DNA of 11,273 bases from a virus. The notes beneath the pieces were generated by a model. It ran no database searches, was not told the origin of the DNA, and was given only the letters and a program-made list of their open reading frames with translations. Made by a program: the position numbers and the translations under genes. Below, one piece after another: positions 2,271-7,555 of this stretch (positions are counted from its first letter, which is position 1; the number at the start of each line of letters is the position of its first letter). Location of the stretch: the UHGV virus genome UHGV-1977856. One strand, written 5' to 3'.

Positions 2271-3461
2271 ATGAATACTGGATATTCTCCCGAACAAGGG
2301 CGGGGCTTCGTTCGTCCTGAAAAACAGAATCTGCAAAATTTTGCCGAAATTATTCCGGTTATTTCCGGCCTTACTGGCGGGAGTGAAACCAATATTGTTA
2401 ACGCCAGAGCGTTGCAGATGTTTGATGATAAAAAGGGAGTAAATTTAACTTACACCCCTGACGGCAATCAGAATATGAGCATTATCTCTGAGTCAGGTTT
2501 CTACAAACTAATAAAAACAAAAAGCGCCCCGTTGCCGGAGCGCCTTTGTGAACAATTAACCTACTGCGCAAAAAATGAATCTGAGCAGTGGGATTATATC
2601 AACCGTGTGGCGAAGCGCCACAATTGCCGGATAACAGGCAAAACAAAGGCCACCCGCTACGGTGGCCCCTCGACACAAGCTACACGTTATCCCCAACGCA
2701 TGAGCATCACCAACAATGCCACATTTGCGGCTGGTGGGCAATGTGATCAGTCAGATTTGGTTCGTTCCAAGGTTTGCAACGAGAGCTTTTTCCTGTGCTC
2801 TTTAAGGAATTTCTCAAGAGCAAAAGCACATGGCGCGAATCTTTCTGATTCATGCTCTATCTTTCTGCGCCGTCTTTTCCGTGCCGGTGATAATGTTTTG
2901 GTCAATTCTTTATCGGTCATTGTGTTGTCCTGCATAGCAATGCGCCGTAATACCTTACACCACGGCGCTGATGGTGATTACTCTGGTTCTTTGGTCTTGC
3001 GACGCTGGAGTTCTTCGCGTGCAACGGTGACAAGCTGCCCGATTTCTTCCGCTGCTTTGATGCCGATTTGTTCGACCTTAGCCAGGGCATCCAGTGACGA
3101 CACAAGGGGATTTTCTCCGCTGCCTTCTGCTTGGCGGCGGGCTATTTCTCCGCGCATGGCGGTTACGATAAATCCGGCATTGCTTTCGCCGTCCAGCTTA
3201 ACGGATTCCATCCCTTGCATAACATCTAGTGGGACTCTGACAGTTGTCAGTTGTGATTTTGCGTTTTTGTTAGCCGTTGCCATTTCTGAAACTCCTAATC
3301 ATCGGTGTGTTTCAGTATACACAAAAAAAGAAATACAAAAAGCCTTGACGTGTGTTTCATGCGCTCATAACATGAAACACACCAAAAGAATTGTTGAAAT
3401 ACAAAGAGCAACGCCCCGCAGTGCCGGAAACACATACGGGGCGTCTAACCACCAACGATAG
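2271..3461 (+). CDS. Uncertain ORF: only the N-terminal ~130 codons look protein-like (weak BRO-N/KilA-N-like ESGFYKLI motif); possible pseudogene or read-through artefact
   Basis: Residues after about 2700 are Ser/Cys/Arg-rich low-complexity and lie exactly antisense to two better-supported - strand genes (2747-2920, 2978-3283). No in-frame stop until 3461. Confidence 0.25.
   Translation: MNTGYSPEQGRGFVRPEKQNLQNFAEIIPVISGLTGGSETNIVNARALQMFDDKKGVNLTYTPDGNQNMSIISESGFYKLIKTKSAPLPERLCEQLTYCAKNESEQWDYINRVAKRHNCRITGKTKATRYGGPSTQATRYPQRMSITNNATFAAGGQCDQSDLVRSKVCNESFFLCSLRNFSRAKAHGANLSDSCSIFLRRLFRAGDNVLVNSLSVIVLSCIAMRRNTLHHGADGDYSGSLVLRRWSSSRATVTSCPISSAALMPICSTLARASSDDTRGFSPLPSAWRRAISPRMAVTINPALLSPSSLTDSIPCITSSGTLTVVSCDFAFLLAVAISETPNHRCVSVYTKKEIQKALTCVSCAHNMKHTKRIVEIQRATPRSAGNTYGASNHQR
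2747..2920 (-). CDS. Small basic hypothetical protein (57 aa, MTDKELTKTLSPARKRRRRKIEHE...)
   Basis: Start taken at the internal ATG 2920, which has an SD (AGGA, 7-nt spacing); the ORF-track start 2935 lacks one. Lies downstream of, and co-oriented with, the RHH gene. Confidence 0.45.
   Translation of the reverse strand: MTDKELTKTLSPARKRRRRKIEHESERFAPCAFALEKFLKEHRKKLSLQTLERTKSD
2978..3283 (-). CDS. Ribbon-helix-helix (CopG/Arc-like) DNA-binding protein; candidate repressor of the element
   Basis: 101 aa with a good SD (ttaGGAGtttcagaaATG). N-terminus fits the RHH fold pattern: beta-strand TTVRVP, helix LDVMQGMESVKL, turn DGESNAG, helix FIVTAMRGEIARRQ. Sits divergent to the rightward operon, next to an inverted-repeat operator. 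Confidence 0.6.
   Translation of the reverse strand: MATANKNAKSQLTTVRVPLDVMQGMESVKLDGESNAGFIVTAMRGEIARRQAEGSGENPLVSSLDALAKVEQIGIKAAEEIGQLVTVAREELQRRKTKEPE
3304..3385. promoter_or_regulatory. Divergent promoter/operator region: rightward sigma70-like promoter overlapped by an 11-bp inverted repeat, plus a third half-site near the RHH gene start
   Basis: TTGACG (3345-3350), 17-bp spacer, TAACAT (3368-3373). Inverted repeat tgtgtttcatg (3351-3361) / catgaaacaca (3371-3381). A further tgtgtttca copy lies at 3307-3315. A leftward -10-like TATACT is the reverse complement of 3316-3321. Confidence 0.55.
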
Positions 3462-3480
3462 CAAGATTATCGAGGCTGCT

Positions 3481-3687
3481 ATGAGAAATCATACCATACA
3501 CCCGCAAGGGCGGGACTCGCACAACCTGAATAAATACATCTGGCGTTTTATCGCCCTGAGTACGGTACAACCGCGCGTGATTACCATTGAGGCCACCAGC
3601 GAACAGGAAGCCCGTCAGCAATCACCGGCTGGCTGCGTGATGGTATTCGCCGCCCGTATTCGTCAGGGGGTGCACCATGTGCAATAA
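3481..3687 (+). CDS. Small hypothetical protein (68 aa); tentatively recalls Icd-like small proteins of P4-type elements
   Basis: ATG 3481 has an SD (cGAGGctgctATG); the ORF-track start 3391 is a TTG without SD. Product MRNHTIHPQGRDSHNLNKYIWRFIALS...ITIEATSEQEARQQ... The family resemblance is from memory only. Its stop overlaps the next gene's start. Confidence 0.5.
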   Translation: MRNHTIHPQGRDSHNLNKYIWRFIALSTVQPRVITIEATSEQEARQQSPAGCVMVFAARIRQGVHHVQ

Positions 3688-3916
3688 CACCCGTCCGGAC
3701 GCAGCCGCCGAAGCAATCAAAACACTGATTGATGCGCTGATTGATATTTCATGCACGGCAGCAACCGCAGAAAAACACATTACCAGAGAGACGGAATATA
3801 CAGGGGCAATAATCCCCCATTCGCTGGCATACGCACAGATTACCGCTGATATGGCACTGAATGAGGCTAAAGCCATCCTGATTGCTGATTGTGAAAATGG
3901 GGGGGGTTATGCGTGA
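3677..3916 (+). CDS. Hypothetical small protein (79 aa)
   Basis: ATG overlaps the upstream stop (cATGTGCAATAA), indicating translational coupling in the operon. No recognisable domain. Confidence 0.5.
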   Translation: MCNNTRPDAAAEAIKTLIDALIDISCTAATAEKHITRETEYTGAIIPHSLAYAQITADMALNEAKAILIADCENGGGYA

Positions 3917-4339: not shown

Positions 4340-4639
4340 ATGAAAAAGAAAATTTCTGGCTTTACTGCCAGCGGCCCCGCTCGGCCTGAAATCCGCCCCG
4401 GCGATATTTTCCGGGATAACTACGGCGGCACGGTAACGATTAAAAGCGTGGCGGGACGGTGCGTTACTTACCGCCGTGATGGGTACGGTTATGACTGCGT
4501 GATGCCTGTTTATCAGTTCCGGCGTGATTTTTCGCTGGTACAGGCCACACCACGCAGACAGCCCACCAGCAACGCAAAGGCACGGGCAAATATTCAGAAA
4601 ATGAAAAACATGATTAACGCATTCAGGGGCACAAAATGA
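4340..4639 (+). CDS. Hypothetical small protein (99 aa)
   Basis: SD acAGGAAaataaaaccATG; its stop overlaps the rep start (ATGA). Confidence 0.5.
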   Translation: MKKKISGFTASGPARPEIRPGDIFRDNYGGTVTIKSVAGRCVTYRRDGYGYDCVMPVYQFRRDFSLVQATPRRQPTSNAKARANIQKMKNMINAFRGTK

Positions 4640-6051
4640 AATTGGCACCGAACTTAAAAAAACAGCCACACGACAAAATGACCGAAGTCATTATTTTTGC
4701 GGGTAGTGATGCCTGGGCGCACGCGAAACAATGGCAGGAACAGGACGGGCGACTTGCTGGCGACAACGTGCCACCTGTATGGCTTGGAGACAGCCAGCTT
4801 GACGAACTGGCAGACCTGAAAATCATCGATGATGGTCGCTATTGTGTCCGGCTGTACAAGGCAGGCCACATCAAGCCGTCAAATATTAATGCCATCGGGC
4901 AAAAGCTGGCGGCGGCAGGTGTACGGGATGCGAATTATTACCCTGAGGGAATGCACAGCCAGAAGCTGGAGAACTGGCACGACTACCTGCAACGGATCCG
5001 CGAACAGACAGAGCGCGGGGAAATACTTACTGACGAGCAATACAGCCAGCGAAAAACCACGCTACCAATGAGCATTGGATCTGCAGGGTACGACACACAG
5101 CTTGATTATGTCGTTAAGGGCGTGATTCCGGCTAATTCATTGTGCAGCACATACGGCGCGAGCGGTTCCTATAAATCGTTCCTCGCGTGTTCCTGGGCGT
5201 GTCATGTTGCCACGGGTCGCCACTGGGGAGGCCGCAGGGTGGCGCATGGTTCGGTGATGTATGTCGTCGGTGAAGGGGGGATAGGTGTCCCCCGTCGTAT
5301 CAAGGCATGGGAAATCGTTAATGATGAACGGGTGGAAAATCTGTACCTGGTAAACCGCCCGATTTTTCCGGCAGTCCCGCTTGATGTCGATGAAATGGTC
5401 ATCGCTTCCCGCCAGGTTGAACGGGAAACGGGTAAACCGGTACGCATGATTATTCTGGATACGCTGGCGCGTTGCTTTGGCGGTAATGATGAAAATGACG
5501 CGCGGGATATGGGGGCGTTTATCCGTGGATGTGACGAACTGAAACGACGCACAGGGGCCACAGTGCTGGTGGTTCACCATTCCGGCAAGGATGAAACAAA
5601 GGGGGCGCGTGGTTCCAGTGCATTTCGTGCATCTCTGGACGCTGAATACCGTATTCGCCGTGAAGGTGCAGACAGTGAAGCCCTGGTTATCTCCTGCACC
5701 AAAATGAAGGACGCGGAGGAACTGAAAGAGGCTGCATACGATTTACGTGTGGTGGAGCTTTTTACCGACACTGACGGGGAGTTAATCACGTCGCTGGTGG
5801 TTGTGGATAAACCGCGCCCACCCGTTGAACTGGAGCGCATCGAGGAAGCCGGGAACAAGACGGAGAATCATGCCGCGCTATGGGGCTGTATCCGTTCACG
5901 CACACAGCGCGGCGATAAATGCACAATTCCGTTGTTGCGTGATGATATGAAAAAGCTGGGGTATGAGATGAAACACTTCCGGCGCTGGCTGTACAAGCTG
6001 GAAGGTGATGGCGTTATTGCTATTGACGGTGATGACGTGTGCCCACTGTAA
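4636..6051 (+). CDS. Replication initiator / helicase with RecA-like (AAA_25, RepA-like) ATPase domain; N-terminal ~160 aa of unknown function
   Basis: 471 aa. P-loop-like GASGSYKS, Walker B-like MIILDTLARCFGG, and a VVHHSGKD motif typical of RepA-like helicases. Followed directly by an iteron array. No primase motifs recognised by eye. Confidence 0.8.
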   Translation: MKLAPNLKKQPHDKMTEVIIFAGSDAWAHAKQWQEQDGRLAGDNVPPVWLGDSQLDELADLKIIDDGRYCVRLYKAGHIKPSNINAIGQKLAAAGVRDANYYPEGMHSQKLENWHDYLQRIREQTERGEILTDEQYSQRKTTLPMSIGSAGYDTQLDYVVKGVIPANSLCSTYGASGSYKSFLACSWACHVATGRHWGGRRVAHGSVMYVVGEGGIGVPRRIKAWEIVNDERVENLYLVNRPIFPAVPLDVDEMVIASRQVERETGKPVRMIILDTLARCFGGNDENDARDMGAFIRGCDELKRRTGATVLVVHHSGKDETKGARGSSAFRASLDAEYRIRREGADSEALVISCTKMKDAEELKEAAYDLRVVELFTDTDGELITSLVVVDKPRPPVELERIEEAGNKTENHAALWGCIRSRTQRGDKCTIPLLRDDMKKLGYEMKHFRRWLYKLEGDGVIAIDGDDVCPL

Positions 6052-7034: not shown

Positions 7035-7345
7035 GGCGGCGGCAGCATGTGTGATAATTTATTGATAATTAAAAATTATTTCTGTTTTTACCTGTACAAT
7101 ATTTTTTTCTCCATGTCATTAGACCAGTTTGCAATTAATTGAAATATATAAATAAATTTGTTTTTCACCTGCCAGATGGAGTTGCCTGTGCAAAATGTGT
7201 TCAGATGGCGGGATATTTATGCCGGATTCTCTCCGGCTTTTTTGTGTCTGAATCTGATCAATCTATTTTTATGATAGAAATATGTTTATCTACCACTTTT
7301 ATCGATCAATAATGCGCGCAGTTTAGTCAGTAAGAGGAAGTTACT

Positions 7346-7555
7346 GTGAATTGTATTAACGACCTGAACACAGGCGAGGTAAAAGGTGGTTCCGTTCATC
7401 TGGATGCGCAGACCGTTATGCGCCTTAAGCAGTACAGGATCGACCACATAAATCATCATCCTGACCAACCATTACCAGGTGTGGCGCAGATTGTCAGACA
7501 CGCAGTTAACGCGTGGCTTGATAAGAATGGTTTTGCATCTGGGGGTGAGCAATGA
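7346..7555 (+). CDS. Hypothetical small protein (69 aa), first gene of the capsid operon
   Basis: GTG start with a strong SD (aagaggaag, about 6-nt spacing); its stop overlaps the protease::MCP start (ATGA). Confidence 0.55.
   Translation: MNCINDLNTGEVKGGSVHLDAQTVMRLKQYRIDHINHHPDQPLPGVAQIVRHAVNAWLDKNGFASGGEQ

Follow-up and report, generated by a model that had tools for sequence, protein, structure and literature searches.

A ribbon–helix–helix regulator and its promoter-borne sites as a probable repressor and exchangeable immunity cassette of an Escherichia coli phage satellite

The stretch analyzed here, 11,273 nucleotides of the viral genome UHGV-1977856 (the window), carries a leftward gene for a 101-aa protein of the YlcI/YnfO family that faces a rightward operon headed by an Icd-like gene, with an array of short repeats between the two. 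The best explanation of this arrangement, and in our judgement a probable one, is that the 101-aa protein is an autoregulated ribbon–helix–helix (RHH) repressor acting on the Icd-like/replication operon, and that the whole has the design of an exchangeable immunity cassette. Two lines of evidence carry this reading: the placement of the repeats on the promoters, and the way in which their sequence changes from locus to locus together with the predicted DNA-reading strand of the RHH protein.

The first-pass annotation of this DNA had counted three copies of TGTGTTTCA, and exactly three are present in the whole window, at 3306–3314(+), 3351–3359(+) and 3373–3381(−), in addition to which there are degenerate in-phase copies, namely h2 and a candidate fifth site at 3395–3403 (Table 1). 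The centres of the five sites, 3310, 3333, 3355, 3377 and 3399, are spaced by 22–23 bp. Three non-overlapping copies of the 10-mer GTGTGTTTCA, as found in the 197-bp intergenic region, were reached in none of 20,000 dinucleotide-preserving shuffles, and the 9-mer equivalent was reached in 2/20,000; the test counts non-overlapping copies, as an overlapping 9-mer count is inflated by A-runs (111/20,000). Because no shuffle reached the observed number and exact copies occur nowhere else in the window, the array is non-random, and it is placed on the promoters. The rightward promoter proposed earlier (P_R) stands, being the only sigma70-like match that a consensus scan gave within 2600–3700. The inverted repeat described in its spacer is likewise present, with arms of 12 rather than 11 nt (3350–3361 and 3370–3381), of which the left arm alone lies in the −35/−10 spacer and the right arm runs from the last −10 base over the predicted start. 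The copy reported near the start of the RHH gene (h1) lies, more precisely, immediately 3′ of the −10-like TATACT hexamer of a predicted leftward promoter (P_L), such that h1 starts at the last base of the leftward −10 and h4 at the last base of the rightward −10.

For comparison we used loci from genomes of other genera, from E. coli genomes, and from contigs encoding particular RHH variants, whose intergenic regions, with the −35 as anchor, could be aligned gap-free. At least nine specificity variants, lettered here, were recognized in several genera, and in these the positions of the sites are kept and their sequence is variant-specific. Variants A, B and C have 9-bp sites (TGTGTTTCA, TGTAAGACA and TGTGATTCA, respectively) at −39/−40, −17, +6 and +28, counted from the first base of the −35, and variant E has TGGTATTCA at −17, +6 and +28 with only a degenerate copy at the first position. 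The long-form variants (A, B, C and E) all have site h2 (−17/−16), each with its own variant sequence, and h1 in variants G and I was read by eye. In variant G, that of the model island EcCICFT073, two copies of GTGGGCCACACC at a distance of 22 bp lie in a TTGACG-17-TATAGT promoter, with a related copy beside the leftward −10, and two further short-form variants have the sites TGTTCAACA and TGGAATCCA, each itself palindromic. The orientation of the sites is → ← → ← in A–C and E, that of direct repeats in G, and → → ← ← in D and F, which have a GTGTGTA-type site. The promoter parts between the sites are constant across variants (TTGAC, leftward TATAC(T), and A-tracts): the −35 is TTGAC in 17 of the 19 aligned intergenic regions and TTAAC and TTGAA in the remaining two, and a P_L −10-like hexamer is found in every variant (TATACT, TATAAT, TATATT, TATTTT, TAATGT or TATTGT). 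Variant A loci of E. coli, Xenorhabdus, Photorhabdus and Serratia keep the sites, and the 13 nt between h3 and h4 vary among them. Overall, sites of the same locus are alike at 7.0 of 9 positions, versus 5.3 of 9 for the sites of other variants (Mann–Whitney p=3e-12).

In these loci the site sequence co-varies only with the predicted beta-strand of the RHH protein (residues 11–17). The strands and sites pair as follows: QLTTVRV with TGTGTTTCA, QSLTARI with TGTAAGACA, KQISIRI with TGTGATTCA, QQLNARF with TGGTATTCA, QALKARV with TGGGCCACA, QTVAARV with TGTTCAACA, and QKLQARA with TGGAATCCA. No such co-variation was found for the Icd-like protein, AlpA, the integrase, the replicase, the protein of the neighboring 57-aa gene, or the C-terminus of the RHH protein itself, whose C-terminal half is 60–96% identical across specificity variants. 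Thus the window (variant A), locus L014 (D) and loci L015/L016 (B) encode Icd-like proteins that are 87–90% identical and RHH C-termini that are 83–91% identical, yet they have three different operators, and the window and L014 even share identical integrase (Int) and AlpA protein accessions. Conversely, the RHH N-terminus is identical in L014 and L019 and the operator is of one type, yet the Icd-like proteins of the two share only 43% identity and their replicases belong to different families. The suggestion that the repeats are the operator of the RHH protein is supported by these comparisons, in which the positions are fixed relative to both promoters and the sequence changes only with the RHH beta-strand. 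One observation concerns the specificities of neighboring copies: a single Xenorhabdus vietnamensis contig carries two RHH/operator modules about 5 kb apart (L009 and L010), both with the variant-A site type, and therefore co-resident copies are not always of different specificity.

The repeats had been labeled half-sites, a label that does not fit the comparison well. Seven variants conform to TG-N5-CA, the site is palindromic in two variants, and Arg16 in the strand is invariant, and for these reasons each 9-bp element is more likely a full site for one symmetric RHH dimer. It would then fall to the variable strand residues, 12 and 14 by the alternation rule, to read the inner bases that vary.

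Table 1. Features of the window discussed in the text, in order of position
Feature	Positions	Strand	Basis or remark
McaS/IsrA small RNA (sRNA) gene	73–168	−	117.6 bits; left edge of the window
Integrase gene	412–1662
AlpA-type helix–turn–helix (HTH) gene	ends 2218
Bro-N remnant (83 aa)	2271–2520	+	Pfam; between the alpA-like gene and the leftward genes
Second leftward terminator-like hairpin	2520–2547	−	12-pair stem, T run
Intrinsic-terminator-like hairpin ending the leftward RHH–57-aa unit	2645–2670	−	10-pair stem, T-rich tail
57-aa basic protein gene	2747–2920 (62 aa from ATG at 2935)	−	List of open reading frames (ORFs); phrog_21027, E=2e-14; with the 101-aa RHH gene, one of two small leftward genes between the Bro-N remnant and the Icd-like gene
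101-aa RHH regulator gene (YlcI/YnfO family)	2978–3283	−	ORF list; RefSeq name YlcI/YnfO family protein
Shine–Dalgarno (SD) sequence AGGAG of the RHH gene	3292–3296	−	8 nt 5′ of ATG; read from sequence
Site h1, TGTGTTTCA	3306–3314	+	Abuts the leftward −10, over the predicted leftward start
P_L, predicted −10 TATACT	3314–3319	−	Conserved −10-like hexamer read from sequence
Site h2, degenerate copy TGTATTTCT (minus strand)	3329–3337	−	2 mismatches; where the P_L −35 would lie
P_R: TTGACG 3345–3350, 17-nt spacer, TAACAT 3368–3373	3345–3373	+	Promoter scan
Site h3, TGTGTTTCA	3351–3359	+	Directly after the −35, inside the spacer
Site h4, TGAAACACA on plus strand	3373–3381	−	Begins at the last −10 base, over the predicted start site
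Candidate fifth site TGTATTTCA	3395–3403	−	In phase, 1 mismatch; at best weak matches in other loci
Structured leader of the rightward operon	3411–3472	+	Hairpin 3411–3444 (bipartite), invariant TCTAACCA 3444–3451, hairpin 3456–3472
Icd-like gene, first of the rightward operon	3481–3687	+	NF033153, 67.3 bits; RefSeq annotation
Four small ORFs, then DUF4222			Rightward, after the Icd-like gene
RepA-type helicase gene	4636–6051	+	After DUF4222
Single-stranded DNA-binding protein, ClpP-protease/major-capsid fusion, small-terminase-like DUF1441 protein			After the RepA-type helicase

The 101-aa gene is real, because its ratio of nonsynonymous to synonymous substitution rates (dN/dS) is 0.02–0.15 in this frame, which amounts to strong purifying selection; the strong SD that had been noted for it is confirmed at 8 nt before the ATG. 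The protein matches the NCBIfam model NF041551 (YlcI/YnfO) over residues 9–50 with 63.2 bits against a curated cut-off of 30. An AlphaFold2 model of the monomer, built from an alignment of 31 homologues, has an extended N-terminus/beta-strand at about residues 11–17, helices at 19–28 and 35–54, and a long C-terminal helix at 59–98 (per-residue confidence, pLDDT, >90 at residues 71–90), and the beta–alpha–alpha order of the N-terminal domain agrees with that of solved RHH domains of the MetJ/Arc/CopG superfamily. In the alignment of homologues, residues 1–35 form a mosaic of discrete variants and residues 55–98 are conserved, with an invariant I73–G74 within the predicted long helix. A sequence search of the PDB found residues 45–86 to be weakly like the helix–hairpin–helix (HhH) of Hef (1x2i, E=0.0037), a likeness for which neither Pfam HhH, which gave no match to the RHH protein, nor the AlphaFold2 model offered support. 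The 216 homologues with an organism name are nearly all from Enterobacterales, and a tblastn search with the RHH protein against 50,697 phage records gave no match. We found no paper on YlcI/YnfO proteins that assigns them a function, and a 2026 survey gives them only as 'prophage-associated protein'; nor did the PADLOC defence models match the RHH, 57-aa or Icd-like proteins.

Binding, repression, autoregulation and oligomerization are what we infer from these sequence patterns, and the mechanism would be as follows. RHH dimers would occupy the 9-bp sites (TG-N5-CA; TGTGTTTCA in the window) over two back-to-back promoters. Occupancy of h3 and h4 would exclude RNA polymerase from P_R and thereby silence the satellite's Icd-like/replication operon, as is to be expected because one site fills the spacer by the −35 and the other covers the −10 edge and the start. 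Occupancy of h1 and h2 at P_L would let the RHH protein limit its own synthesis, an expectation based on the positions of h1 and h2 relative to the leftward −10, which equal those at P_R. The long C-terminal helix would plausibly join dimers that sit two helical turns (about 22 bp) apart. The N-terminal DNA-reading part and the operator/promoter block would be inherited and exchanged as one cassette with at least nine specificities, and since the DNA-reading part and the operators travel together, the unit may be expected to behave as an immunity module.

Several points weigh against this reading or parts of it. P_L is without a recognizable −35, and the consensus scan made no P_L call. Pfam RHH_1, Arc and CopG gave no match at E≤1 to the window protein or to 31 family members, and the best that Pfam offered was PSK_trans_fac below threshold (E=0.02 for the window protein, 0.0011 at best among the 31 members). 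The refuting outcome named at first pass, the lack of an RHH HMM hit, is thus formally obtained for Pfam; nevertheless, the modeled fold together with the NCBIfam match outweighs the missing Pfam match, and the predicted fold of the 101-aa protein is RHH. The model itself is of a monomer, from a shallow alignment and with a pLDDT of 77.6, such that the dimer and any tetramer are assumed, and the window protein has Leu19 where at least 90% of its homologues have His. Some relatives are short, 59-aa RHH proteins without the C-terminal helix; variants D and F differ in site form and orientation, and the spacings in short-form variant H are 16 and 25 bp, so that a tetramer spanning 22 bp would not be universal. 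It could also be that linkage within one recombination block adds to the co-variation, given that the codons of the RHH N-terminus lie only about 20 bp from the operator. A shared reader is nonetheless favored over linkage alone, because several separate sites change together and the promoter hexamers between them remain unchanged. Finally, over-expression of AlpA alone induces EcCICFT073 (PMC6092414), so any RHH repression can be overridden.

This last point bears most directly on the proposal that the array is a master switch like that of Stl, in which a helper phage protein would bind the RHH protein, for instance at its conserved C-terminal helix, free it from the DNA and thereby induce the island. 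The RHH gene is indeed divergent from the replication operon, like stl in the pathogenicity islands of Staphylococcus aureus (SaPIs), its C-terminal half is conserved across specificity variants, such that a common partner is conceivable, and no repressor has been described for Gram-negative PICIs (phage-inducible chromosomal islands; PMC6092414). Against this stand the short 59-aa forms, which lack the C-terminal helix altogether, and above all the behavior of EcCICFT073, which has the same module: there, helper phages raise alpA transcription, deletion of alpA abolishes induction, and over-expression of AlpA alone is sufficient to give excision and uncontrolled replication (PMC6092414). Since the helper input of EcCICFT073 is placed at alpA, the RHH protein is unlikely to be the primary helper sensor, and it is more likely a maintenance or immunity repressor that acts downstream of AlpA or is bypassed by it. 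The first-pass view of the array as an Stl-like point of helper action is thus not supported as stated, and we regard such a switch as doubtful. A toxin–antitoxin (TA) pair, in which the RHH protein would be the antitoxin and the 57-aa basic protein the toxin, with repeats that autoregulate this pair only, is unlikely, and strongly so. The 57-aa protein matches no toxin or defence family, a pattern search did not detect it in many loci that keep the RHH gene and operators (those of the Xenorhabdus, Photorhabdus, Serratia and Klebsiella type and several from E. coli), and two of the sites lie on the core of the rightward promoter, beyond the RHH protein's own promoter. A type II antitoxin was likewise rejected on finding no cognate toxin conserved alongside the RHH gene in the same operon.

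It may also be asked whether the repeats serve another reader, that is whether they are replication iterons, or sites for AlpA, the integrase, the Icd-like protein or the 57-aa protein. A periodicity of 22 bp is typical of iterons, and phrog_6196 and phrog_1743 label Icd-like proteins as repressors ('transcriptional repressor'). Iterons were rejected since a given repeat type is found beside several replicase families and a given family beside several repeat types: operator variant B is found with a RepA helicase, a DNA primase family protein or AAA_25, and variant D with a RepA helicase or D5_N/DUF5906. Sites for AlpA or the integrase were rejected because the same Int and AlpA accessions stand beside different operators, and the Icd-like protein as a Cro-like counter-repressor because it does not co-vary with the operator, different operators being found beside near-identical Icd-like proteins; the 57-aa protein, for its part, is nearly invariant across five operator types. 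A reader other than the RHH protein is accordingly highly improbable. We further considered and rejected the loop GGAAACACA of the leader hairpin (3426–3434) as an extra operator copy or as the antisense partner of the operator, since the loop sequence is independent of the operator variant, and variant B loci have two unrelated leader loops.

If the RHH protein is a repressor in the sense proposed here, its derepression could take one of two routes. Transcription driven rightward by AlpA might enter the operon across the RHH gene, antisense to it; a scan of 1650–2800 found no strong rightward terminator-like site, the only plus-strand candidates being short stems within the alpA-like coding region (2145–2166). 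Alternatively, an antirepressor protein might act on the RHH protein. In related islands AntA/AntB, Rha or Bro proteins are found between alpA and the RHH gene, and the window retains only a Bro-N remnant in this place. As an observation in itself, proteins of antirepressor type, AntA/AntB or Rha, are encoded in loci L031 (675–1475), L032 (268–1068) and L033 (560–1529), where their genes stand between alpA and the RHH gene and are convergent with the latter.

The module is not confined to islands selected through the RHH gene. In all five islands that were chosen regardless of it, namely EcCICFT073, the island at the pepT–roxA site of O157:H7 and three matched through their Icd-like gene only, a leftward RHH gene faces the Icd-like gene. 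EcCICFT073 (L030 10243–10853; NC_004431 1380242–1380852), whose module order is that of the window, encodes a 59-aa short RHH protein (NC_004431 1380473–1380652) without the C-terminal helix, plus the 57-aa gene. The O157:H7 island, which judged by its location alone is of the capsid-forming PICI (cf-PICI) type EcCIEDL933, has in the same slot an unannotated 63-aa Arc/HicB-like ORF (L028 4250–4441, minus strand, TTG start as listed) that matches phrog_228 'Arc-like repressor' (E=5e-7), lies under an annotated 247-aa antisense ORF, and is followed by the 57-aa gene, as in the window. In its intergenic region (L028 4430–4490) GTGGTCACCT occurs twice, 39 bp apart, the first copy directly after TTGACA. 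An hhalign comparison of the RHH family with the O157 Arc-like ORF was not significant.

Taken as a mechanism, an RHH repressor acting on divergent promoters is ordinary, the design being closest to that of P22 Mnt, with a tolerance of site orientation like that of omega. In Mnt, an RHH domain at the N-terminus is followed by a C-terminal helical oligomerization domain, and the gene is divergent from the repressed promoter, over which the operator lies. The window protein shares with Mnt, in the Mnt/Arc immI region, the order of domains and the divergent layout, whereas an hhalign comparison against the Mnt sequence gave a probability of only 1.1% over 14 aligned columns, a further point on the side of doubt. 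Mnt has one operator, in contrast to four to five sites about 22 bp apart over two promoters in the window; the operon regulated in P22 immI is that of an antirepressor rather than of Icd-like and replication functions of a satellite; and a second repressor of the Arc type was not found in the window, where changes of the operator are not matched by changes of the first rightward gene. Omega of pSM19035, CopG and ParG-type RHH dimers bind arrays of short direct or inverted repeats over promoters. The tolerance of site orientation, with orientations that differ between variants, is shared with omega, but omega uses contiguous 7-bp heptads rather than 9-bp sites two helical turns apart, and omega, CopG and ParG serve plasmid copy control or partition rather than a phage satellite. 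Stl proteins are HTH repressors. Like the window regulator, Stl/Rpr of SaPIs and other Gram-positive PICIs is a leftward regulator facing a rightward replication operon, and Stl proteins are released by helper phage proteins (PMC6092414); the window regulator has instead an RHH fold, and the helper signal in the E. coli model island passes via alpA. The lambdoid immunity cassettes likewise have a mosaic boundary inside the regulator gene and another past the operators, with many specificities on similar backbones, but they use another fold and are far larger, the window cassette being about 200 bp with no counter-repressor identified in it. P1 immI (c4 RNA–icd–ant) and the P4 CI RNA system share with the window an early operon that opens with a structured leader followed by an Icd-like gene. 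The Rfam C4 and isrK models do not match the window leader; its loop varies independently of the operator, and no target for it is evident around the ribosome-binding site of the Icd-like gene. Control of the window operon appears to be exerted by protein rather than by leader RNA.

For Gram-negative PICIs, the global repressor has been called 'unclear' and the islands described as 'transcribed unidirectionally and rightward', and their difference from Gram-positive islands 'is a mystery' (PMC6092414); a preprint on cf-PICIs makes no mention of a repressor. An RHH switch as a satellite component appears to be undescribed in the literature. It is possible, and we put it forward tentatively, on odds that we judge to be somewhat against it, that the leftward RHH protein with its operators is the repressor for maintenance or immunity so far missing from accounts of Gram-negative PICIs, EcCICFT073 and the O157:H7 pepT–roxA island among them. 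If so, the repressor would have been overlooked because of descriptions of rightward-only transcription and of the annotation of antisense ORFs; AlpA, or proteins of the Ant/Bro/Rha type from genes between alpA and the RHH gene, would override the RHH protein and so induce the island; and the at least nine operator specificities would define immunity groups among co-resident satellites. With a concrete candidate repressor, sites and target promoter named, and the module present in the model island EcCICFT073, the question becomes directly testable. The natural matched pairs of beta-strand and operator also provide a table for work on how RHH proteins recognize DNA, and offer a supply of small orthogonal repressors.

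The long antisense ORFs are in themselves a probable and recurrent annotation error that hides the regulator gene. In the window a 396-aa plus-strand ORF (2271–3461) runs antisense across both leftward genes, and because the RHH frame is under strong purifying selection this ORF is best read as spurious beyond the Bro-N remnant. Elsewhere RefSeq has antisense ORFs in place of the RHH gene, one of 327 aa called 'Icd-like' in TW10828 (L014 2501–3484) and one of 247 aa called hypothetical in O157:H7 (L028 3807–4550).

The 57-aa gene that follows the RHH gene, noted before as an uncharacterized basic protein gene, is real, present and conserved. Its 51 homologues are all from Escherichia or Shigella and show in-frame indels where the N-terminus is basic; they share the conserved core ERFAPCAFALEKFLKE, in which a Cys is invariant. 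It lies directly 3′ of the RHH gene, in near-unchanged sequence, next to the 101-aa variants A, D and E, the CFT073 variant (G) and the O157 Arc-like RHH; its near-constancy across operator types means that the specificity of the sites is not set by it. Locus L016 has a leftward ORF of 57 aa some 500 bp away from the RHH gene. A perfect 7-bp inverted repeat (GCGCCGT...ACGGCGC, 2942–2968), read from the sequence, lies in the interval from the stop codon of the RHH gene to the start of the 57-aa ORF and may be an mRNA processing or stability element.

The structured leader of the rightward operon was folded across 14 loci, where 96.4% of cells are paired and 7 of 12 pairs show compensatory changes; none of 500 shuffles reached this pairing, and slid controls gave 29–45%. 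The hairpin at 3456–3472 lies next to or contains the SD (GAGG 3472–3475). Rfam searches of the whole window, and of 3340–3700 at a lax threshold, gave nothing relevant, neither C4 nor isrK. A reading in which the leader hairpin is followed by a boxA-like element, in the manner of rrn antiterminators, is no more than a guess.

As to its surroundings, a single whole genomic island makes up essentially all of the window. In the abgR/mcaS–smrA interval the match to E. coli PI7 is 100% identical, and the island is a complete PICI-type satellite island of about 10.8 kb from E. coli. The order int – alpA – variable zone – replication – late/packaging, in an island of about 10–20 kb, is that of Gram-negative PICIs of the EcCICFT073 type, and it agrees with the four-zone layout described for Gram-negative PICIs (PMC10111431). 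The island is inserted between abgR/mcaS and smrA, without a tRNA gene as its site. DNA resembling 2700–3700 was found in 1,756 of 5,426 complete E. coli genomes, in 304 of which at least 80% of it is present, with as many as 6 matching places in a single genome, and a blastn search of the same neighborhood against phages gave one 73-nt match only. A run of short GAACAA/ACAACG-type repeats at 1690–1745, 3′ of the integrase gene and 5′ of the alpA-like gene, could be arm-type or AlpA sites. Farther to the right, a 69-aa ORF (7346–7555, plus strand) that overlaps the start of the capsid gene matches phrog_4934 (E=2e-30), and the ORF that RefSeq annotates opposite to it (7286–7468, minus strand) has no match; judged by eye, the product of the 69-aa ORF looks like a strand–helix–helix protein.

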